DNA from: a virus
DNA length: 46,029 nt
Virus genome (UHGV): UHGV-0229940
Direction: 5' to 3' (one strand)
The notes beneath the pieces were generated by a model. It saw only the letters and a list, made by a program, of their open reading frames with translations. It was not told the DNA's origin and ran no database searches. Below, in pieces: positions 2,973 to 15,665 of the stretch (position 1 is its first letter; each line of letters begins with the position of its first letter). A program made the position numbers and the translations under genes.

Positions 2973-3172
2973 TCAAGGTCAACAAGTCTTTGCAGGACTT
3001 TCCCTCTAGGTGTTACACCTTTTAAGTCTGCATCGTAGCAACGGTAAAAGTCACCTTCAGCGTGTTTACCATAGCATTTCCTGATATTCTGACTTCTACG
3101 ATATTGTTCTAATAGAGACAGTCTGTAGTAATCTTCAACTGTAGTTAGTTTTTTCATTCTTTCACCACGCAT
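2939..3172 (-). CDS. hypothetical small basic protein
   Basis: 77 aa ORF. Confidence 0.4.
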   Translation of the reverse strand: MRGERMKKLTTVEDYYRLSLLEQYRRSQNIRKCYGKHAEGDFYRCYDADLKGVTPRGKVLQRLVDLEWNKRLRGVGK

Positions 3173-8716: not shown

Positions 8717-10132
8717 ATGAGCGAGTTATTTAAACATGCGCACCTTCATGCAGGTCGAACTGAAAATGGTGCTGTAAACCATACTTCATCAATGTCTGCT
8801 CTGGTAGACTTCTACAAAGCCGCTGGCTCAAGCCGTAGCAATGTAGAAATCTTACCAGACCTGTTCTACAAAGCTTTGCGTGAGGATGTTGATGTTGCAG
8901 TTCGTATTTTACTGCATATGCGAGATGTACGAGAAGGTATGGGTGAGCGTAAAGCTTTCCGAACTGTTTTACTTCAAGCACTTGAAGACAAGGTTTTAGA
9001 GCCTACGCAGGTTCTTCGCATTATGGATAAGATTGCAGAACTTGGTCGTTTTGATGACTTCAAAATCTTCGTAGGTACTCGTTTCGAGACAGATGCCTTC
9101 AAACACCTAGAAGCAGCATTACTAGAACCTGCAACAGCAGGTTTGGCGGCTAAGTGGTTACCACGAGTCAAACCACGTCATAAGCAGTTTGTAAAACGTT
9201 TCTGCAAGTTTGCCAACTTGAGTGAGAAAGAGTACCGCACACTGTTGTCTGCACTATCTGATACAGTTGAGCAAAAAATCTCTGCTAATGAGTTTGGTAA
9301 GATTGACTACAGTAAGATTCCTTCACTTGCTGCTGCACGTTACCAAAAACTGTTTAACCGCAAAGATGGAGAACGCTACAAAGCTTACATCGAGTCCTTA
9401 TCAAAGGGTGAGACTAAGATTAATGCTGGTGCTGTTTACCCATACGATGTAATTAAATCTGTTAAGCATGGTAATGCAGATGTTGCTAATGAGCAGTGGA
9501 AAGCACTACCAAACTGGATGGCAGATGGTGAAAACATCTTGTGTATGTCTGATGTTTCAAGCTCAATGTCTTGGGTGAATTTTGGTTCAATTACTGCTCT
9601 TGATATTGGTGTTTCACTTGCATTGTATGTAGCAGAACGCAATACAGGTTGCTTCAAGGATGAGTTAATGGTTTATTCAACAAACCCTCACTTCATCGAA
9701 CTGAGTGGTGATTTACGAAACCGTCATCGTCAGGTGATGCGACATGTTGAATATGGCTCAACTAACTTACAAGCAGCTTTTGACCGCATTCTTGAGGTAG
9801 GTAAGAGAAACAACTTGACTCAGAAAGACATGCCAAGTAAGCTTATCATCTTCTCAGATATGGAGTTCAATCAGGTTGATGGAGCTAACGGTCGTACAAA
9901 CTTTGAAGCAATTCAGAGTAAGTACAAAAAAGCTGGGTACGAAATGCCTCAACTGGTATTCTGGTACTTAGCAAACCGTAATGGTACTTGCGAAGTGTCT
10001 GTTAAGGATAACGGTGTAGCAATGGTATCTGGTTTTTCTCCAGCTACTTTAAAAGCTCTGCTTGGTGGTGAGAAGTTTGACCCAATCAGTGTAATGCTCA
10101 AAGCAGTAATGATTGACCGTTACATCTGGTAA
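8717..10132 (+). CDS. von Willebrand factor A (vWA) domain protein with MIDAS motif; Ro60/TROVE-like two-part architecture is a hypothesis
   Basis: 471 aa; DxSxS MIDAS motif in ILCMSDVSSSMSW about residue 275; about 270 aa N-terminal region upstream of the vWA fold. Confidence 0.8.
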   Translation: MSELFKHAHLHAGRTENGAVNHTSSMSALVDFYKAAGSSRSNVEILPDLFYKALREDVDVAVRILLHMRDVREGMGERKAFRTVLLQALEDKVLEPTQVLRIMDKIAELGRFDDFKIFVGTRFETDAFKHLEAALLEPATAGLAAKWLPRVKPRHKQFVKRFCKFANLSEKEYRTLLSALSDTVEQKISANEFGKIDYSKIPSLAAARYQKLFNRKDGERYKAYIESLSKGETKINAGAVYPYDVIKSVKHGNADVANEQWKALPNWMADGENILCMSDVSSSMSWVNFGSITALDIGVSLALYVAERNTGCFKDELMVYSTNPHFIELSGDLRNRHRQVMRHVEYGSTNLQAAFDRILEVGKRNNLTQKDMPSKLIIFSDMEFNQVDGANGRTNFEAIQSKYKKAGYEMPQLVFWYLANRNGTCEVSVKDNGVAMVSGFSPATLKALLGGEKFDPISVMLKAVMIDRYIW

Positions 10133-10241: not shown

Positions 10242-10270
10242 TTGACAACCACTAAAAAATAATGTTAAAG
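10242..10270 (+). promoter_or_regulatory. second promoter-like TTGACA box followed by inverted repeat AACCACT/AGTGGTT
   Basis: TTGACA at 10242-10247; weak -10 candidates; 7 bp inverted repeat spanning the -10 region. Confidence 0.3.
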
Positions 10271-10297
10271 TGGTTACATAGAGTTTGAAAAGTTTAT

Positions 10298-10374
10298 CTC
10301 TGTTTAGCTCAGCTTGGTAGAGCGTTCCGTTTGGGGCGGTAAGGCCGGAGGTTCAAGTCCTCCAACAGAGACCA
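10298..10374 (+). tRNA. tRNA-Pro (anticodon TGG)
   Basis: Manual cloverleaf: acceptor CTCTGTT/AACAGAG, T-arm GGAGG-TTCAAGT-CCTCC, anticodon loop TTTGGGG, CCA encoded. Confidence 0.7.
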
Positions 10375-10381
10375 AATTAAT

Positions 10382-10456
10382 GTTCCAGTAGACAAAATGG
10401 TAAAGTCACCACTCTTTCAAAGTGGATATCTGAGGGTTCAAATCCCTTCTGGAACG
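10382..10456 (+). tRNA. tRNA-Glu (anticodon TTC)
   Basis: Acceptor GTTCCAG/CTGGAAC, anticodon stem CCACT/AGTGG, loop CTTTCAA. Confidence 0.7.
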
Positions 10457-10466
10457 CAAGTTTTGA

Positions 10467-10540
10467 CAGAAGACCAATTACAGCAAACTTAATCTACTCA
10501 TCTGACACGAAATCGGACAAAGAAGATATTTGGTCTGGTC
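10467..10540 (+). ncRNA. inter-tRNA structured spacer element, copy 1 (5' box CAGAAGACC-NNN-TACAGCAA, 3' box GGTCTGG; AGACCAAT pairs with ATTTGGTCT)
   Basis: Conserved boxes with a complementary flank whose sequence differs between copies while pairing is kept. Confidence 0.5.
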
Positions 10541-10549
10541 ATTGAGAAT

Positions 10550-10626
10550 TGCGGGTATAGAGAAAGGGCGTCTCACATGTCTCATTAGCATGGTATCGGC
10601 AGGTTCGACTCCTGCACCCGCCTCCA
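10550..10626 (+). tRNA. tRNA-Met (anticodon CAT); position 1:72 is a T:C mismatch
   Basis: T-arm GCAGG-TTCGACT-CCTGC, acceptor 3' ACCCGCC, anticodon loop CTCATTA, CCA encoded. Confidence 0.6.
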
Positions 10627-10632
10627 ATTTTG

Positions 10633-10694
10633 CAGAAGACCGTATTCAGCAACAAAATACTTTTTGCGGATAAAAGAAAAAACACGGTCTGGCA
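10633..10694 (+). ncRNA. inter-tRNA structured spacer element, copy 2 (AGACCGT pairs with ACGGTCT)
   Basis: Same CAGAAGACC ... CAGCAA 5' box and GGTCTGG 3' box as copy 1, with compensatory change in the pairing flank. Confidence 0.5.
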
Positions 10695-10703
10695 ATGTAT
10701 TAA

Positions 10704-10780
10704 GGTTAGGAAGCACATAAGGTATGTGCGGTCGCCTGTTAAGCGAATGGCACAGGGTTCGAATCCCTGACTAACCGCCA
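10704..10780 (+). tRNA. tRNA-Asn (anticodon GTT)
   Basis: T-arm CAGGG-TTCGAAT-CCCTG, anticodon loop CTGTTAA, CCA encoded. Confidence 0.7.
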
Positions 10781-10788
10781 AATTAAAT

Positions 10789-10876
10789 GTGTCGTTATCC
10801 CGTAGATGGTAGCGGTGGGGACTGTAAATCCCTTGTCATTGAGACTCGGTAGGTTCGACTCCTACACGGCACACCA
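10789..10876 (+). tRNA. tRNA-Tyr (anticodon GTA), long variable arm
   Basis: 88 nt; anticodon stem GGGGA/TCCCT, loop CTGTAAA; T-arm GTAGG-TTCGACT-CCTAC. Confidence 0.7.
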
Positions 10877-10881
10877 ATAAA

Positions 10882-10958
10882 GGCTATGTAGTTTAACTGG
10901 AGAAAATACTCCCCTGTCACGGGAGATGATGTGAGTTCAAGTCTCATCGTAGCCGCCA
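10882..10958 (+). tRNA. tRNA-Asp (anticodon GTC)
   Basis: Anticodon stem CTCCC/GGGAG, loop CTGTCAC; acceptor GGCTATG/CGTAGCC. Confidence 0.7.
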
Positions 10959-11019
10959 ATTTTGAGAGGGCTATTTAGCCCCTCCCTTAAAGAGTTCTTA
11001 CGAGTATTCTTTAAAGGAG

Positions 11020-11095
11020 CAGAAGACCAAATACAGCAAGAATGTATGAAATTTCAAGCCAATTTAATTTTGAAAATTTAAAACTTGGTCTGGCT
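11020..11095 (+). ncRNA. inter-tRNA structured spacer element, copy 3 (AGACCAA pairs with TTGGTCT)
   Basis: Conserved 5' and 3' boxes with covarying complementary flank. Confidence 0.5.
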
Positions 11096-11106
11096 CAACA
11101 AATTTA

Positions 11107-11238
11107 CAGAAGACCGTTTACAGCAAAACTTAAACAATCTATTTCTCCGGTAAAGAAAAGGCGAAGGTTCGATTCCTTCACTCGGCAGATGTCGAGTTGG
11201 TGTAATGGTAGCACTTAAGATGATAAACAACGGTCTGG
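11107..11238 (+). ncRNA. inter-tRNA structured spacer element, copy 4 (AGACCGTT pairs with AACGGTCT), enclosing a permuted tRNA-like segment
   Basis: Same boxes as copies 1-3; internal segment 11139-11214 has tRNA anticodon-arm, T-arm and acceptor-3' features followed by acceptor-5' and D-arm features. Confidence 0.45.
11139..11214 (+). pseudogene. permuted or fragmentary tRNA-like sequence (3' two-thirds precedes a complementary 5' acceptor and D-arm)
   Basis: Anticodon-like stem TTTCT/AGAAA, T-arm GAAGG-TTCGATT-CCTTC, acceptor-3' ACTCGGC, then GTCGAGT (pairs with ACTCGGC) and D-arm GTGTAATGGTAGCAC. Confidence 0.35.
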
Positions 11239-11241
11239 TAA

Positions 11242-11257
11242 TTATCTTTGTAGATAA
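11242..11257. repeat. palindromic hairpin TTATCT-TTGT-AGATAA (left copy)
   Basis: Exact reverse complement of the copy at 11366-11381. Confidence 0.6.
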
Positions 11258-11365
11258 GTTATTAAGCTTACCTGTGAGTATGCGACCACAAAGGGTGAAA
11301 GGGTAAATTCTAGATTTAAACCCAAAAAGGCACATCGCTACAGACCTTAAGCAAGTCTGGGTAGC

Positions 11366-11381
11366 TTATCTACAAAGATAA
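11366..11381. repeat. palindromic hairpin TTATCT-ACAA-AGATAA (right copy, inverted relative to 11242-11257)
   Basis: The two copies bracket a 108 bp segment. Confidence 0.6.
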
Positions 11382-11387
11382 TTTAAT

Positions 11388-11463
11388 GGAAGTGTAGCAG
11401 AATGGTGATGCGGCAGACTTTTAATCTGACAGGCGATGGGTTCGAATCCCTCCACTTCTACCA
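11388..11463 (+). tRNA. tRNA-Lys (anticodon TTT)
   Basis: Anticodon stem CAGA/TCTG, loop CTTTTAA; acceptor GGAAGTG/CACTTCT; CCA encoded. Confidence 0.6.
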
Positions 11464-11467
11464 ATAT

Positions 11468-11544
11468 GGTTCAGTCGCAGATAAGGTAATGCAAGGGTCT
11501 CATAAGCCCTATGAATGTGGGTTCGATTCCCATCTGAACCTCCA
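11468..11544 (+). tRNA. tRNA with CAT anticodon (Met, initiator or Ile-lysidine type; GGG/CCC run in anticodon stem)
   Basis: Perfect acceptor GGTTCAG/CTGAACC, anticodon loop CTCATAA, T-arm GTGGG-TTCGATT-CCCAT. Confidence 0.7.
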
Positions 11545-11545
11545 A

Positions 11546-11621
11546 GCTGGTATAGTTAAGAAGGTTATAACACTCCCCTGATAAGGGAACATCGGTGGTT
11601 CGATTCCACCTACCAGTACCA
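11546..11621 (+). tRNA. tRNA-Ile (anticodon GAT)
   Basis: Anticodon loop CTGATAA; T-arm GGTGG-TTCGATT-CCACC. Confidence 0.65.
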
Positions 11622-11636
11622 ATTTCAATAAAGTTG

Positions 11637-11665
11637 TTGACATTGAGATGTGACTACTTTATAGT
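11637..11665 (+). promoter_or_regulatory. strong sigma70-like promoter inside the tRNA array (TTGACA, 17 nt spacer, TATAGT)
   Basis: -35 at 11637-11642, -10 at 11660-11665. Confidence 0.6.
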
Positions 11666-11868
11666 AACCTTAGTTTTCGTTGCGTAGCGTCTATTTTGCA
11701 AATTTAAAATAAATGCAAACGACAATGTTTTTCTGGCAGTAGCTTGATAGGCTAAACACCAGTGAGGTCTTCCAATCCCTCATCAAAGAATTTGGCGTAC
11801 TAGCCCACGGTATGATTAATAAGGTGGGCATCTTTAAGGGCTTTCTAAGAGAGTCTTTAAAGATTAAT
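11666..11868 (+). ncRNA. about 200 nt promoter-proximal non-tRNA spacer; candidate small stable RNA
   Basis: No ORF and no tRNA fold found; contains stem GCCCAC/GTGGGC (about 11789-11814); downstream of the promoter at 11637. Confidence 0.3.
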
Positions 11869-11945
11869 GCACCCTTAGTTCAATTGGATAGAGCAACGGT
11901 CTTCTAAATCGTTAGTTACAGGTTCGAATCCTGTAGGGTGTGCCA
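11869..11945 (+). tRNA. tRNA-Arg (anticodon TCT)
   Basis: D-arm GTTC-AATTGGATA-GAGC, anticodon stem ACGGT/ATCGT, loop CTTCTAA. Confidence 0.7.
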
Positions 11946-12087
11946 ATTAGTTAGCAGATTACTTAGACGACCTAAGCGGGTCTTCCTGTAGGGAGGTGGT
12001 CTGTATCTCATGTTTTCCAGAACATGTAAATAATCTGAGAAGGGGCTTTACAGTGTTGAGATAATACGGTAAGCTTCGAATTATAAT

Positions 12088-12170
12088 ATGGGACGATGTT
12101 AAGACTCTAAGGCATGAGCAACGGCCTCCAAAACCGTTTCAAAGGGGTTCAACTCCTCCGTCCCATGCCA
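12088..12170 (+). tRNA. tRNA-Trp-like (anticodon CCA) with about 7 extra nucleotides between acceptor and D-arm
   Basis: Perfect acceptor ATGGGAC/GTCCCAT, anticodon stem ACGG/CCGT, loop CTCCAAA; total about 80 nt without CCA. Confidence 0.5.
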
Positions 12171-12183
12171 AAGTCTTATTAGG

Positions 12184-12271
12184 GGTAGGTAGCGGCTAAT
12201 GGTAGCCAAACTGTCTTGAAAACAGTTGCCACTGTAGAGATACGGTGAGGGTTCGACTCCTTTACTTACCG
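12184..12271 (+). tRNA. tRNA-Ser (anticodon TGA), long variable arm
   Basis: Anticodon stem ACTGT/ACAGT, loop CTTGAAA; 88 nt. Confidence 0.7.
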
Positions 12272-12429
12272 CCTAATAAGGTTTAAAGCCAAGCTTCATT
12301 CGGATGTTGCTTTGGTATCCCTCGTGTATTGTCGTACAAGCACAGTAAAGCACCTAGTAGGTGTCACGGAGAAGAGATAATATCAAGCTCTCCAAAGGTT
12401 CTAGTCACCGGATTAAACAAGACTATGCA

Positions 12430-12451
12430 AAGACCTTTTTAGGTCTTTTTA
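12430..12451 (+). terminator. terminator-like hairpin inside the tRNA array (AAGACC-TTTTTA-GGTCTT then T-run)
   Basis: 6 bp perfect stem followed by TTTTT. Confidence 0.4.
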
Positions 12452-12529
12452 GAGGGCTTCTAAGGTTATTACAGCTTGTTGTGGAACCTTGTTGCTTAGG
12501 TTCTTAGAAGTTCTCTAAAAAGATTTAAT

Positions 12530-12607
12530 GGGAGATTGACGGTAATTGGTAAACCTACCATCCTTAGAAGTTGGTGTTTGAGGGTTCGAATCCCTTGTCT
12601 CCTACCA
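12530..12607 (+). tRNA. tRNA with anticodon TAG (Leu decoding) but short variable arm
   Basis: Acceptor GGGAGAT/GTCTCCT, T-arm GAGGG-TTCGAAT-CCCTT, anticodon loop CTTAGAA; 78 nt. Confidence 0.5.
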
Positions 12608-12614
12608 AATTAAT

Positions 12615-12690
12615 GCAGGTGTAGCAAAATGGTTATGCGGCTGACTCTTAATCAGTAAGACGATGGGTTCAATTCCCTCCACCTGTACCA
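12615..12690 (+). tRNA. tRNA-Lys (anticodon CTT)
   Basis: Anticodon stem GCTGA/TCAGT, loop CTCTTAA; paralogous to the Lys-TTT gene. Confidence 0.6.
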
Positions 12691-12696
12691 GACATT

Positions 12697-12772
12697 GGGG
12701 ATGTAGTTTACATGGTTAAAACATAAGTTTTGCAAACTTAAGTACAGGGTTCAATTCCCTGCTTCTCCACCA
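12697..12772 (+). tRNA. tRNA-Ala (anticodon TGC) with G3:U70 identity pair
   Basis: Anticodon stem TAAGT/ACTTA, loop TTTGCAA; G at position 3 opposite T at position 70. Confidence 0.7.
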
Positions 12773-12778
12773 ATTAGT

Positions 12779-12853
12779 GCATCCATAGTTTAAACGGGAA
12801 AATTACAGTCTTCCAAACTGAGGTTGAGGGTTCGATTCCCTCTGGATGCTCCA
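12779..12853 (+). tRNA. tRNA-Gly (anticodon TCC)
   Basis: Perfect acceptor GCATCCA/TGGATGC, anticodon loop CTTCCAA. Confidence 0.7.
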
Positions 12854-12860
12854 AATTAAT

Positions 12861-12937
12861 GCTGCTTTCGTATAATTGGCTATTACACATCCCTTGTAAG
12901 GATGGAAATGCGGGTTCGAGTCCTGTGAGCAGCACCA
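12861..12937 (+). tRNA. tRNA-Thr (anticodon TGT)
   Basis: Anticodon stem CATCC/GGATG, loop CTTGTAA. Confidence 0.7.
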
Positions 12938-13032
12938 ATTCAGAGGTCAAGTGAAAGACCGCTGGTGTCAACTGAAGACCGTAACAAATTCCACGGAGTT
13001 GAGTTAGCGGCACAACTTCAGACCTCTTTCAC

Positions 13033-13107
13033 ACTCGCTTAGTTTATATGGTAAAACATCACCCTTACAAGATGAAGAAAAAGGTTCAAGTCCTTTAGTG
13101 AGTACCA
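13033..13107 (+). tRNA. tRNA-Val (anticodon TAC)
   Basis: T-arm AAAGG-TTCAAGT-CCTTT, anticodon loop CTTACAA. Confidence 0.6.
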
Positions 13108-13108
13108 T

Positions 13109-13186
13109 GTTCCAGTATCCCAATTGGCAGAGGATGCAAGCTCAAACCTTGTATTAGTGACGGTTCGAATCCGTCTTGGAACACCA
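13109..13186 (+). tRNA. tRNA with anticodon CAA (Leu decoding) but short variable arm
   Basis: Acceptor GTTCCAG/TTGGAAC, T-arm GACGG-TTCGAAT-CCGTC, anticodon loop CTCAAAC. Confidence 0.5.
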
Positions 13187-13191
13187 ATTTT

Positions 13192-13267
13192 GCAGGATTA
13201 GTTCAAATGGATAGAGCAACAGTCTACGAAGCTGTTAATAGGGGTTCGAATCCCTTATCCTGCGCCA
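13192..13267 (+). tRNA. tRNA-Arg (anticodon ACG)
   Basis: Perfect acceptor GCAGGAT/ATCCTGC, anticodon loop CTACGAA. Confidence 0.7.
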
Positions 13268-13284
13268 GATAAAAAGGTGATACT

Positions 13285-13527
13285 ATGCAAACATTAACAG
13301 TAGTTGAACATGAAAACTGTGAGAATATTGAGTTTGTCAGGGTCATTGGTGTTGAACACCACATTTTCTTAAAAGTAGGGTACTTATGTGACCCCGCTAG
13401 AGTAGAAAGATTTATACGTGATTGTTTTGGTGGTAGACAGCTAAAGAGTGTTATTTTTGAGACAGTTTTACCAGAAGGTTTAGAAACGAATAATAACATT
13501 TATCTCCTTACAAGGATTAGACGATGA
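13285..13527 (+). CDS. hypothetical protein encoded inside the tRNA array
   Basis: 80 aa ORF with SD AAAGGTGA upstream. Confidence 0.5.
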   Translation: MQTLTVVEHENCENIEFVRVIGVEHHIFLKVGYLCDPARVERFIRDCFGGRQLKSVIFETVLPEGLETNNNIYLLTRIRR

Positions 13528-14081
13528 GATATTTAAAATATGCTTCATGGATTTTCCTAGCTTTGCTAGAACCATTAGCAGCAACCTTAGCAGTTATCTT
13601 AGCACCTTTCGTAGTTCCATTTTACAGTGAGAAGAAAGGCCACTTACCTTTCGGATTTAGATGGATGGAGACATATGACAACCCAATTGATGGTGACGAA
13701 GGTCATATCGAACGATGGGCTAAGATTAGAAAGATTGGTAAGCTGGGTGTCTACATGCAGAGAGTCGGATGGCTCTGGAGAAACAAAGCTTATAACTTCT
13801 CTTACCATGTATTAGGAAGAGATGTAAAAGATGTTACTAAGTGGAAAGGTAATATCAACGTAAGTTCTGACCCTGAAGATAATCAGACAGGTTATCTCCT
13901 AATGTGGAACAGTAATGCTTGGGGATTATTCGCTTTTATCCCATCAATTAAAGTCTTTGGTAAACAGTTTTACTGGAGAATTTATATTGGATGGAAACTA
14001 AAAAGTGTTGTCCCAGAAGAAAGAGCATTCTCAAGGGAAAGAGTTATGTTGGCATTCTTTATTCATCCACTGAGAAAGTAA
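13524..14081 (+). CDS. hypothetical membrane-anchored protein encoded inside the tRNA array
   Basis: 185 aa; N-terminal hydrophobic segment ASWIFLALLEPLAATLAVILAPFVVPF; 4 nt overlap with the upstream ORF. Confidence 0.6.
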   Translation: MRYLKYASWIFLALLEPLAATLAVILAPFVVPFYSEKKGHLPFGFRWMETYDNPIDGDEGHIERWAKIRKIGKLGVYMQRVGWLWRNKAYNFSYHVLGRDVKDVTKWKGNINVSSDPEDNQTGYLLMWNSNAWGLFAFIPSIKVFGKQFYWRIYIGWKLKSVVPEERAFSRERVMLAFFIHPLRK

Positions 14082-14089
14082 AGATTTAA

Positions 14090-14165
14090 AGGGGATTAGT
14101 TTACAAGGTTAAAACCTCGGTCTTTGAAATCGAAGAAGTTGGTTCAATTCCAACATCCCCCGCCA
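14090..14165 (+). tRNA. tRNA-Gln (anticodon TTG), weak 1:72 pair
   Basis: D-stem GTTT/AAAC, anticodon stem TCGGT/ATCGA, loop CTTTGAA. Confidence 0.65.
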
Positions 14166-14167
14166 AT

Positions 14168-14246
14168 GCTCCATTACTCCAATTGGCAGAGAGGCCAGAC
14201 TTAAAATCTGTGTTATGTATCGGTTCGAATCCGATATGGAGTACCA
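14168..14246 (+). tRNA. tRNA with anticodon TAA (Leu decoding) but short variable arm
   Basis: Acceptor GCTCCAT/ATGGAGT, T-arm ATCGG-TTCGAAT-CCGAT, anticodon loop CTTAAAA. Confidence 0.5.
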
Positions 14247-14251
14247 AATTT

Positions 14252-14327
14252 AGCGGTATAGCATAACTGGCAATGCAACAGTCTCTGAAGCTGTCCTATT
14301 AAGGTTCAAATCCTTATGCCGCTGCCA
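14252..14327 (+). tRNA. tRNA-Gln (anticodon CTG)
   Basis: Anticodon stem ACAGT/GCTGT, loop CTCTGAA. Confidence 0.6.
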
Positions 14328-14358
14328 CTTCTAAGGGTTCTTACGAGAGTCCTTAAAT

Positions 14359-14434
14359 GTGGCCTTATCATAAATGGTAATGACCCATGCTGTGAACATG
14401 GTCTATACGGGTTCAAATCCCGTAGGTCACCCCA
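14359..14434 (+). tRNA. tRNA-His (anticodon GTG)
   Basis: Anticodon stem CCATG/CATGG, loop CTGTGAA; T-arm ACGGG-TTCAAAT-CCCGT. Confidence 0.7.
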
Positions 14435-14439
14435 ATTTA

Positions 14440-14516
14440 TAGTCCAAGTAGCTTATATGGTTAAAGCGCGTGTCTGAAAAACATGAGAAGAGGGTTCAAA
14501 TCCCACTGGACTACCA
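14440..14516 (+). tRNA. tRNA-Phe (anticodon GAA)
   Basis: Perfect acceptor TAGTCCA/TGGACTA, anticodon loop CTGAAAA. Confidence 0.65.
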
Positions 14517-14532
14517 ATTTCAAAGGTGCTTA

Positions 14533-15267
14533 ATGAAAGAGATGACAGAACAAGGTAAGGAGATTTTTAATCTCTTAAAAACCGGTAAAGGGTTTTCTAA
14601 CCCACTTATTACTGGTGCAGCAGTTCTCGGTGGAACCGTAGCTGCTTCTACATCACTTGTAAGCTCTATTAGTTCTGTAACAGACCCTACAATGCAGGAG
14701 AAACTTGTTGCTGCTGGACTTACAACAGTCCTTCTAAACAGCTTTACAACAAGCCTTACAAGCACTACAGCAACTACTAAGACCCTGACAGACTACGGTC
14801 AAAAATCTATTGATGAGTTTTCATCACGTATGCAGGTAGCAAAGGGATATTCCAATGTTATGGGTGCAGCAGGAGAACAAGTTGGTTGTACACCGTTCAG
14901 TGGTATTATGGGTGTTGCTACAGAATATGGTCAAAAAGCTATTGATACGATTAACAGTACACTAGAGAGTGTTAACGATGTATTAAGTGACTTACAAGAC
15001 GCTATTGACAAGGGTCTTGATACTGTTTCTGATTTAGCTAACCAAGCTGTCAGTAAGATTAATGAAGGTATCTCAAAGATTACAGCTTATGCAGATGAAG
15101 TTGTGCAGATGATTGAAGAAGAAGCTGCCCTTATTGCAGAGTACCTTAAAACGAATATCAATGGGTTCTTAGCAGGTATCTTACCAGACTGGTTTGATGA
15201 TGCCTGTAAAACTGGTGTAATTGACACTATTGCAACACCAGAAATGAAGAACGCATTACAGAAATAA
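14533..15267 (+). CDS. hypothetical Ser/Thr-rich protein encoded inside the tRNA array
   Basis: Six-frame ORF 14470-15267 would overlap two tRNAs, so start is placed at Met 14533 (MKEMTEQ ...); 244 aa. Confidence 0.6.
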   Translation: MKEMTEQGKEIFNLLKTGKGFSNPLITGAAVLGGTVAASTSLVSSISSVTDPTMQEKLVAAGLTTVLLNSFTTSLTSTTATTKTLTDYGQKSIDEFSSRMQVAKGYSNVMGAAGEQVGCTPFSGIMGVATEYGQKAIDTINSTLESVNDVLSDLQDAIDKGLDTVSDLANQAVSKINEGISKITAYADEVVQMIEEEAALIAEYLKTNINGFLAGILPDWFDDACKTGVIDTIATPEMKNALQK

Positions 15268-15361
15268 TGGAAGATTAACCCTAAAAGGTAAGGGAGCAGT
15301 TTGCTAAACTGCCAGTAGCTGAGAAATCGGTGTACCAGTTCAAGTCTGGTATCTTCCTCCA
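15268..15361 (+). tRNA. tRNA-Ser (anticodon GCT), long variable arm
   Basis: Perfect acceptor GGAAGAT/ATCTTCC, anticodon stem GCAGT/ACTGC, loop TTGCTAA; 94 nt. Confidence 0.7.
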
Positions 15362-15365
15362 ATTT

Positions 15366-15441
15366 GAATCCGTGACAGAAATGGCTATGTGCCTGTCTGC
15401 AAAACAGGTTTATAAGGGTTCGAGTCCCTTCGGATTCTCCA
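15366..15441 (+). tRNA. tRNA-Cys (anticodon GCA)
   Basis: Perfect acceptor GAATCCG/CGGATTC, anticodon stem CCTGT/ACAGG, loop CTGCAAA. Confidence 0.7.
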
Positions 15442-15542: not shown

Positions 15543-15665
15543 AGAGTTATACTTTATAGGAAGACTTATACAGTATGTCTCTGACGTACATTGTGGTTTC
15601 TCCTTGACGGTCTCTGTGCCGTCTTTTTTAAGGGGAAACATGGTTAATTATTTGGAGAAAACATA

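Follow-up and report, generated by a model that had tools for sequence, protein, structure and literature searches.

The viral genome sequence UHGV-0229940 (46,029 nucleotides (nt), analyzed as a whole and hereafter called the window) comes from a Felixounavirus and encodes three leucine tRNAs, with anticodons UAG, CAA and UAA, that lack the long variable arm. Their variable regions comprise 5, 6 and 7 nt, respectively, while the serine and tyrosine tRNAs of the same array keep their arms. We consider it highly probable that these genes specify functional leucine tRNAs with class I bodies, charged by the host leucyl-tRNA synthetase (LeuRS), in a Felix O1-like lytic phage; their expression, their charging and the reason for the loss of the arm are what we infer. 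A previous sequence-only reading of the window had noted the missing arms and offered three explanations, namely class I leucine tRNAs with unusual identity rules, charging with another amino acid, or a mistaken anticodon-loop register. The coordinates, lengths and anticodons it gave were reproduced exactly by ARAGORN. A mistaken register can be dismissed, since ARAGORN, Infernal and published tRNAscan-SE results (for the identical genes of Felix O1 and the near-identical genes of Shigella phage Sf14) return the same anticodons, and none of them assigns a different one.

All three genes scored above the gathering score (29) of the Rfam tRNA model RF00005 and were drawn as cloverleaves by ARAGORN, and they are thus members of the tRNA family (Table 1; gene lengths count the encoded CCA). 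No stem-loop can form in any of the three variable regions, which places them outside class II, defined by more than 10 nt with a stem-loop. The short loop of class I (canonically 4-5 nt) is present in the UAG gene; the CAA and UAA genes slightly exceed this range, yet they are armless too. The anticodon loops, CUUAGAA (UAG), CUCAAAC (CAA) and CUUAAAA (UAA), have 7 nt and U33 according to both ARAGORN and Infernal, so that each gene presents a leucine anticodon (NAG or YAA) in a regular loop. In the CAA and UAA genes, the D stem has three base pairs (UCC or CUC with GGA or GAG) and encloses an 11-nt D loop, CAAUUGGCAGA. This is the class II D arm of the Leu/Tyr type, with a 3-bp stem, unpaired positions 13/22 and an enlarged loop, and the UAG gene also has a 3-bp stem in either of its possible registers. 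The three tRNAs thus combine a D arm of class II type with a variable region of class I type in one hybrid body. In the host genes leuZ, leuW and leuX, the variable regions measure 13-15 nt; otherwise, the phage D region follows the 20-nt layout of these host genes, with 21 nt in the UAG gene. All three phage genes have A73 and encode CCA, and G1.U72 occurs in the UAG and UAA genes.

The UAG gene is the least regular of the three. Positions 30 and 40 of its anticodon stem form a U.U mismatch (30.40), its loop has A37, and the stretch around positions 7-14 is longer by one nucleotide. ARAGORN and Infernal place this extra nucleotide at the acceptor/D junction, giving a GGU/ACC D stem. Alignment with the T5 homologue places it in the D loop instead, leaving a C.C mismatch in the D stem. 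An alternative acceptor register proposed by Rfam for this gene (12531-12603) was rejected, as it would make U the discriminator and disrupt the A73-CCA end that the other leucine genes and the homologues have.

The anticodon loops also differ from those of the host in a few details. Compared with UUUAGGU in leuW (U32, G37 and U38), the UAG loop (window 12563-12569) has C32, A37 and A38, and the phage tRNA thus has no G37, the nucleotide that usually carries a methyl group in CUN-reading tRNALeu. The same CUUAGAA loop is common to genes of T5-like phages, Seunavirus and a Xanthomonas phage. In the CAA gene, C38 breaks the A36-A37-A38 motif.

Conservation of the three genes reaches 99-100% over hundreds of Felixounavirus and Mooglevirus records, in which public annotations label them tRNA-Leu. 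Identical copies of the UAA gene occur in Felix O1 (AF320576, 28906-28984) and in at least 216 records; at least 160 phage records contain the CAA gene at 100% identity, and about 70 have an identical UAG gene. The Felix O1 genome paper (2010) reported the same three genes (78/78/79 nt; tRNAscan-SE Cove scores 52.2/46.2/57.9) and made no comment on the arm. Similarly, the Sf14 study (2025) gave the leucine isotype model as the top model for all three (67.4/49.1/60.2), with the variable region left unmentioned.

To compare more distant sequences, a class I cloverleaf was imposed on an alignment of short tRNALeu (24 distinct sequences, drawn from 13 phage loci and about 10 phage lineages). Standard pairs occupy 97.3% of the stem cells, compared with 58% after shuffling and 38-48% when the partners were slid by one to three columns. 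Changes on both sides were found in 18 of 20 pairs, and the covariation score was 1.02 versus 0.25. The invariant positions of this alignment are U8, A14, A15, U17, G18, G19, A20a, U33, A35, U48, G53, U54, C56, A58, C61 and A73. Such data bear on whether the three genes could be decaying tRNA-like relics whose arm was deleted and which are simply carried along in the array. Degenerate copies do occur in such arrays, for example the T-arm-like fragment at 11161-11181 and the CAA/UAA chimeras of phages Si3 and FG1m described below; moreover, some annotators call the UAG gene a pseudo-tRNA, and the folding energies of the single sequences are unremarkable. Near-perfect conservation over hundreds of genomes, pervasive compensatory change with 97% of stem cells paired, invariant identity nucleotides and the encoded CCA all speak against decay. 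In addition, the same design is the only tRNALeu design in T5-like phages and the sole tRNALeu(UAA) at the sampled loci of many Actinomycetota. We therefore regard decaying relics as a very improbable explanation.

Local rearrangements were also observed at these genes. The UAG gene is a hot spot of divergence, with versions that are 85-92% identical inside arrays about 97% identical overall (divergent copies lie around 3001-3079 in loci L004 and L005 and at 4001-4078 in L006, phage Si3). Its anticodon stem (window 12558-12574) exists as CCAUC/GUUGG with the U.U mismatch in the window, as UCUCG/CGAGA in VpaE1 and ASO1B, and as CCUCG/CGAGG in Si3; these versions are wholly exchanged yet compensated, and the D loop of ASO1B is variant as well. 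In Felixounaviruses of the Si3 type, a chimeric gene fuses the CAA and UAA genes (compare window 13109-14246), as seen in the Salmonella phages Si3 (L006, 4579-4657) and FG1m (L011, 4999-5076). In Si3 the two parts meet in the D loop that both genes share, and in FG1m they meet in the T loop. The chimeras have one or two stem mismatches, and the fusion removes the intervening arginine and glutamine tRNAs together with two open reading frames (ORFs). These chimeras point to recombination between paralogous leucine genes.

The leucine identity set of E. coli consists of A73, the U8-A14 and A15-U48 (Levitt) pairs, G18-U55, G19-C56 and A20a (tRNA identity review, PMC9976931, and an Aquifex study). 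According to the same sources, the sequence and folding of the long arm do not correlate with leucylation, the anticodon is irrelevant, and armless variants stay active. By nucleotide identity only, all of these nucleotides are present in the three window genes, whose T loops read UUCGAAU. Of the first explanation offered earlier, class I leucine tRNAs thus stand, while unusual identity rules are unnecessary, because the genes carry the ordinary E. coli leucine set, which is independent of the arm in published work. A73 was found in 24/24 short tRNALeu of the alignment, in 188/188 from the IMG/VR pattern loci listed and in 21/21 from a leucine-independent sample (both described below). G3.U70, G34 and the long arm are all absent from the leucine genes, and alanine, phenylalanine and serine identities are accordingly unsupported.

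The suggestion that the tRNAs are charged with another amino acid, or mischarged so that UUA, UUG and CUN codons are partly recoded in infection, has some points in its favor. Without the arm, tRNALeu has one feature fewer to set it apart from class I tRNAs, the UAA and CAA tRNAs share A35 and A36 (and likewise A73) with tRNAPhe, and the isotype scores of the Sf14 UAG gene for Lys (63.4), Ile2 (65.7) and Arg (60.0) are not far below that for Leu (67.4). Nevertheless, the leucine model is the best one for all three near-identical Sf14 genes, and the leucine identity elements are invariant over the 24 aligned sequences; among the 188, all have A73 and 187 have U48. The window genes have A73, no G3.U70, G34 or other strong determinant of another synthetase, no arm as required by seryl-tRNA synthetase (SerRS), and anticodons that suit no anticodon-reading synthetase, and leucine codon usage in the conserved structural genes is ordinary. 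Recoding is thus highly unlikely in our view, and charging with another amino acid found no support.

In regard to origin, the cores of the three genes are closer to leucine tRNAs of phages with unrelated hosts than to those of the host. Core identity is 0.74-0.84 to Rhodococcus, Lactobacillus and T5-like phage tRNALeu, versus 0.51-0.61 to the anticodon-matched E. coli isoacceptor; on this basis, a recent capture from the host followed by deletion of the arm was rejected. For the UAG core, identity to T5-like tRNALeu(UAG) is 83%, and for the UAA core, identity to the tRNALeu(UAA) of Rhodococcus phage Dorin is 84%. Two types of body could be distinguished. One (UA/C13/CAAUUGGCAGA) includes the CAA and UAA genes of the window, and the other (UG/G13/GAAUUGGYAUA, with variable region GUUUU) includes T5, the UAG gene of the window being a derivative of it. 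Judged from these sequence relationships, the three genes are members of short-arm lineages circulating among phages of very different hosts. The UAA gene had no match in 5,426 complete E. coli genomes in a search too insensitive to detect similarity to host tRNAs, and hence it is not prophage-borne in E. coli.

Short-arm tRNALeu genes were detected in a variety of other phages. The T5-like phages have only two tRNALeu genes, both of 77 nt and both short-arm. Three short genes each were found in Erwinia phage Rouille (77-78 nt) and Aeromonas phage AhP_Mru1 (77 nt), and short tRNALeu are also present in Rhodococcus phage Dorin, Lactobacillus phage LpeD and Enterococcus phage EFGrKN. Short and long tRNALeu occur together in one genome in Pectobacterium phage Wc4, Seunavirus SalP219 and Xanthomonas phage X1. 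One short-arm gene of Rouille (L008, 2192-2269) has the anticodon AAG, which is unusual in bacteria, and one T-stem mismatch.

A scan of IMG/VR with a short-arm UAA pattern yielded at least 120 loci, and the loci listed contain 188 short tRNALeu (163 distinct). Among these, the variable region has 5 nt in 147, 6 nt in 29 and 7 nt in 12 genes, U48 is present in 187/188, and CCA is encoded in 164/188. For a sample independent of leucine, 120 IMG/VR loci were anchored on a tRNAAsn pattern, providing 57 parsable tRNALeu, of which 21 (37%) are short (variable region of at most 8 nt); 19 of these 21 have exactly 5 nt. In the phage and IMG/VR loci sampled, serine tRNAs are always 84-95 nt long and tyrosine tRNAs almost always 80-93 nt. 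G1.U72 was considered as a hallmark of armless tRNALeu and rejected. Although it was found in 92/188 short versus 3/31 long genes, that sample is biased, and the corresponding counts in the leucine-independent sample are 7/21 and 17/36; host leuZ has G1.U72 too.

The short-arm pattern also matched species-representative bacterial genomes at at least 120 loci (L136-L255). The matches listed belong mostly to Actinomycetota, such as Nocardia, Mycobacterium, Gordonia, Rhodococcus and Arthrobacter, and in 104 of 118 bacterial loci among them the short-arm gene is the only tRNA within 8 kb, as expected of an ordinary chromosomal tRNALeu(UAA). The Actinomycetota tRNALeu(UAA) is single-copy and has U8A9, the D loop CAAUUGGCAGA, a 5-nt variable region ending in U, and A73; examples are found in Nocardia mikamii (L138, 2384-2432) and Mycobacterium sp. 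(L139, 7514-7562). On the evidence of these sequences, armless tRNALeu is native to a large bacterial phylum, beyond the tRNALeu(CAA) of Streptomyces coelicolor. The premise of the sequence-only reading, that bacterial tRNALeu normally carries a long arm, is consequently too strong as a universal statement, the short form being common in phages and on many Actinomycetota chromosomes.

What these tRNAs might do is suggested by codon usage. The window has a GC content of 39.2%, and leucine codons in 50 of its ORFs are distributed as TTA 29.8%, CTT 28.9%, CTG 12.4%, TTG 11.6%, CTA 11.4% and CTC 6.0%. In E. coli, about 50% of leucine codons are CTG, 13% TTA and 4% CTA, and the UAA, CAA and UAG isoacceptors are each encoded by a single gene. 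The phage thus supplies exactly those minor isoacceptors that its codon usage calls for. In the structural block, TTA and CTA account for 31.7% and 12.3% of leucine codons. We propose that the three genes would be transcribed within the array of 26 genes and processed by host enzymes, and that host LeuRS would then charge the short-arm tRNAs with leucine. The UAA and CAA tRNAs would decode UUA/UUG, and the UAG tRNA CUA/CUG and probably also CUU, codons that a phage of 39% GC would use far more than its CUG-rich host. Under this proposal, the long arm could be missing because leucine identity does not require it, while serine and tyrosine tRNAs would keep theirs because their synthetases use it. 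The size of the arm is the major serine identity element and irrelevant for leucine (PMC9976931). These synthetase constraints fit a loss that was permitted, and they do not indicate what drove it.

Several points weigh against functional leucine tRNAs charged by the host. In the UAG tRNA, the D arm is irregular and the anticodon stem contains the U.U mismatch, and some records annotate this gene as tRNA-OTHER or pseudo. Folding of the single sequences gave z-scores from -0.3 to -1.8, and the minimum-energy structures are not clean cloverleaves; as single-sequence folding proved uninformative, the comparative evidence was relied on instead. CTT, the second commonest leucine codon, has no phage tRNA with a Watson-Crick cognate anticodon, and its reading would fall to the UAG tRNA through U34 wobble. 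A further objection comes from Fan et al. (2019), who described E. coli LeuRS as an enzyme that "only charges type II" and reported no leucylation by it of the type I tRNALeu(CAA) of S. coelicolor (PMC6614811). Since the identity element of the S. coelicolor tRNALeu is C74 rather than A73, this tRNA is an unfair proxy for the phage tRNAs. Furthermore, the C-terminal domain of E. coli LeuRS touches the arm and its leucine-specific domain (LSD) favors a large arm loop, so that the phage tRNAs may be charged less efficiently. Acceptance of armless tRNALeu by a LeuRS has been demonstrated only for S. coelicolor and human mitochondria, and for enterobacterial LeuRS only with engineered substrates (PMC6614811 and PMC9976931); charging of the phage tRNAs with leucine by the enterobacterial enzyme is what we infer from their identity nucleotides.

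As for a force behind the loss, the arm may have been shed as an anti-defense adaptation, producing leucine tRNAs that evade host effectors reading the class II arm. The effectors in question could be AbiEii/MenT-family nucleotidyltransferase toxins or Schlafen-like or other tRNases, and leucine supply would be kept if host tRNALeu were inactivated. There is a precedent in MenT3, of the family of the abortive-infection toxin AbiEii, which anchors on the long variable loop: removal of the loop from tRNASer abolishes modification and its graft onto tRNAMet confers it. Rescue of infection from tRNA-targeting systems by phage-encoded tRNAs is also known, and the anticodon loops of phage tRNAs are often unlike those of the host. 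The UAG loop of the window differs from leuW at 32, 37 and 38, and at least three compensated anticodon-stem versions exist in Felixounavirus arrays that are otherwise about 97% identical. However, Enterobacteria are not known to have an effector that attacks tRNALeu by way of its arm, the preference of MenT3 is for tRNASer over tRNALeu, and the phage serine and tyrosine tRNAs retain their arms. Class I and class II tRNALeu moreover stand side by side in Wc4, SalP219 and X1, and the same design in an ordinary Actinomycetota chromosomal gene runs contrary to a phage-specific adaptation. Escape from such effectors is thus an unlikely reason for the loss. A wider proposal, that natural armless tRNALeu form a major overlooked class (about a third of phage-encoded tRNALeu, those of the classical coliphage T5 and of Felix O1 included), charged by host LeuRS enzymes described as accepting only long-arm tRNALeu, whose arm was shed under selection against effectors or cross-reacting enzymes (SerRS, AbiEii/MenT-type toxins, tRNases), appears marginally less doubtful, and we offer it as speculation. 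If the arm was indeed shed under selection, its absence would be a counter-defense or insulation trait instead of neutral decay, and the shape of the tRNA body rather than the anticodon loop would be a new axis in the contest between phage tRNAs and tRNA-targeting defense.

The leucine genes of these phages were described and annotated long ago, and type I tRNALeu is an established kind of tRNA; for its prevalence in phages, enterobacterial ones included, we found no published account. Our literature search found no description of armless tRNALeu in phages, and the only explicit earlier remark found on a short loop in array or mobile tRNAs is one sentence on a mycobacterial cluster (PMC6582537). 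In the Streptomyces study of 2019, a single bacterial exception was put forward as the first of its kind, and E. coli LeuRS was said to charge type II tRNALeu only (PMC6614811). Individually unremarkable genes such as those of the window point to a much larger set of exceptions, covering well-studied enterobacterial phages, about 37% of the tRNALeu in the leucine-independent IMG/VR sample, and many Actinomycetota chromosomes. If host LeuRS charges these tRNAs efficiently, the "type II only" description of the E. coli enzyme would need qualifying, natural compact tRNALeu scaffolds would be open to engineering, and annotation tools should be changed where they class these genes as "pseudo" or "OTHER".

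The region is 95-98% identical to Felix O1-like myoviruses that infect Salmonella and E. coli. Spacing between the tRNA genes is mostly 2-10 nt, every gene lies on the + strand (ARAGORN), and the gene order matches that of Sf14 (26 genes) and ASO1B. ARAGORN drew an encoded CCA for nearly every array gene displayed, Ser(uga) at 12184-12273 having only a partial CC tail. The long-arm tRNAs of the array are Tyr (88 nt) and two Ser (90 and 93 nt). Candidate promoters and a terminator-like hairpin are included in Table 1; the total number of promoter-like matches in the region is no higher than in shuffled sequence, and the counterpart of the second candidate is annotated as a promoter in ASO1B.

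Table 1. Leucine tRNA genes, their variable regions and the surrounding array features in the window.
Feature	Position	Strand	Evidence	Remarks
tRNA-Leu(UAG), 78 nt	12530..12607	+	ARAGORN; Rfam 40 bits	Anticodon 12565-12567
Variable region, UAG gene	12575-12579		Segment parse	TGTTT, 5 nt
tRNA-Leu(CAA), 78 nt	13109..13186	+	ARAGORN; Rfam 44 bits	Anticodon 13143-13145
Variable region, CAA gene	13153-13158		Segment parse	ATTAGT, 6 nt
tRNA-Leu(UAA), 79 nt	14168..14246	+	ARAGORN; Rfam 47.5 bits	Anticodon 14202-14204
Variable region, UAA gene	14212-14218		Segment parse	GTTATGT, 7 nt
tRNA array, 26 genes	10298..15441	+	ARAGORN, Rfam	Houses all three Leu genes
Sigma-70-like promoter candidate	10242..10271	+	Consensus match only	TTGACA-18-TAAAGT, extended -10 TG; directly 5' of first tRNA gene
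Sigma-70-like promoter candidate	11637..11665	+	Consensus match only	TTGACA-17-TATAGT, 11/12; 5' of second array block with all three Leu genes
Intrinsic-terminator-like hairpin, then T run	15606..15623	+	Consensus match only	3' of last tRNA gene (Cys)

Besides tRNAs, a 471-residue protein with DUF2828 and DUF7788 domains (PHROG 850, "RNA-binding protein") is encoded directly 5' of the array at 8717-10132 (+), and VpaE1, ASO1B, Si3 and FG1m share this arrangement. Three ORFs lie within the array (+), one at 13285-13527 for a small protein (PHROG 14202), one at 13524-14081 for a protein with DUF7338 and one at 14533-15267 for a protein with DUF7217. Many T4-like phages of Escherichia and Klebsiella have DNA that matches the region of the DUF7338 ORF at about 67-76% identity. 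Between tRNA-Asp and tRNA-Lys, a gap of 430 nt contains a perfect T-arm-like element, GAAGG-TTCGATT-CCTTC (11161-11181, +), followed 3' by a sequence resembling a tRNA 5' half, GTCGAGTTGGTGTAATGGTAGCAC. ARAGORN called no gene at this element, in intron mode included, and the annotation of ASO1B has a 129-nt "tRNA-Thr-GGT" in the equivalent gap; the element may be a broken, permuted or intron-containing tRNA. Low-threshold, intron-aware ARAGORN runs detected no extra genes in the gaps of the array. Two tRNA genes have a CAT anticodon (10550-10626 and 11468-11544), one of them with an unusual loop (CTCATTA in the near-identical Sf14 gene), and they may be elongator Met, initiator or lysidine-dependent Ile2 tRNAs.

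Comparison with known systems helps to place the three tRNAs. The tRNALeu(UAA) of phage T4 is likewise a UUA/UUG decoder in a tRNA cluster of an E. coli phage, with a 20-nt D region and A73, but it has 87 nt and a 15-nt variable arm and is classical class II. Animal mitochondrial tRNALeu(UUR) is class I, with identity provided by A73 and A14 and no long arm; it differs in its dedicated LeuRS, loosened structure and other lineage, and cytoplasmic cross-charging is blocked. Engineered armless E. coli tRNALeu (Asahara 1993/1998; Tocchini-Valentini 2000; Larkin 2002), as summarized in PMC9976931, show that E. coli LeuRS needs A73 and the tertiary core of the D and T loops, but neither the arm nor the anticodon. 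These constructs are laboratory products, whereas the phage tRNAs resemble natural versions of them that are conserved and must also serve the ribosome.

Among natural bacterial cases, the type I tRNALeu(CAA) of S. coelicolor (PMC6614811) has a short loop and exists beside long-arm tRNALeu, one LeuRS serving both. Core identity of the CAA and UAA genes of the window to the Actinomycetota-type tRNALeu body is 68-72%. Charging in S. coelicolor relies on the organism's own leucine-specific domain and C74 identity, while the phage genes are array-borne, are found in Enterobacteria and have A73 plus the elbow nucleotides. A tRNALeu(TAG) in a mobile cluster of Mycobacterium mucogenicum/phocaicum (Behra et al. 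2019, PMC6582537) also has a short loop and shares its array with an HNH endonuclease, and the chromosome additionally carries a normal isoacceptor with the long arm. That case concerns a bacterial genome and a one-sentence remark, with no tie to phages generally, to identity elements or to Enterobacteria.

Finally, according to a later summary of older biochemical work, the species encoded by T5 include tRNALeu. The T5-like tRNALeu(UAG) and tRNALeu(UAA) (Demerecviridae) differ from the window genes in their regular D arm (UG-AUG-GAAUUGGCAUA-CAU) without an extra nucleotide, their variable region is the 5-nt GUUUU, and the T5-like loci examined have no CAA isoacceptor. They share with the window genes the short-arm body, A73, the encoded CCA, the Leu-type D arm and the same hosts. 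The T5-like UAG gene is 83-85% identical to that of the window and has the same CUUAGAA loop and the same U30.U40 mismatch, which is also present in the homologues of Seunavirus and a Pectobacterium phage.

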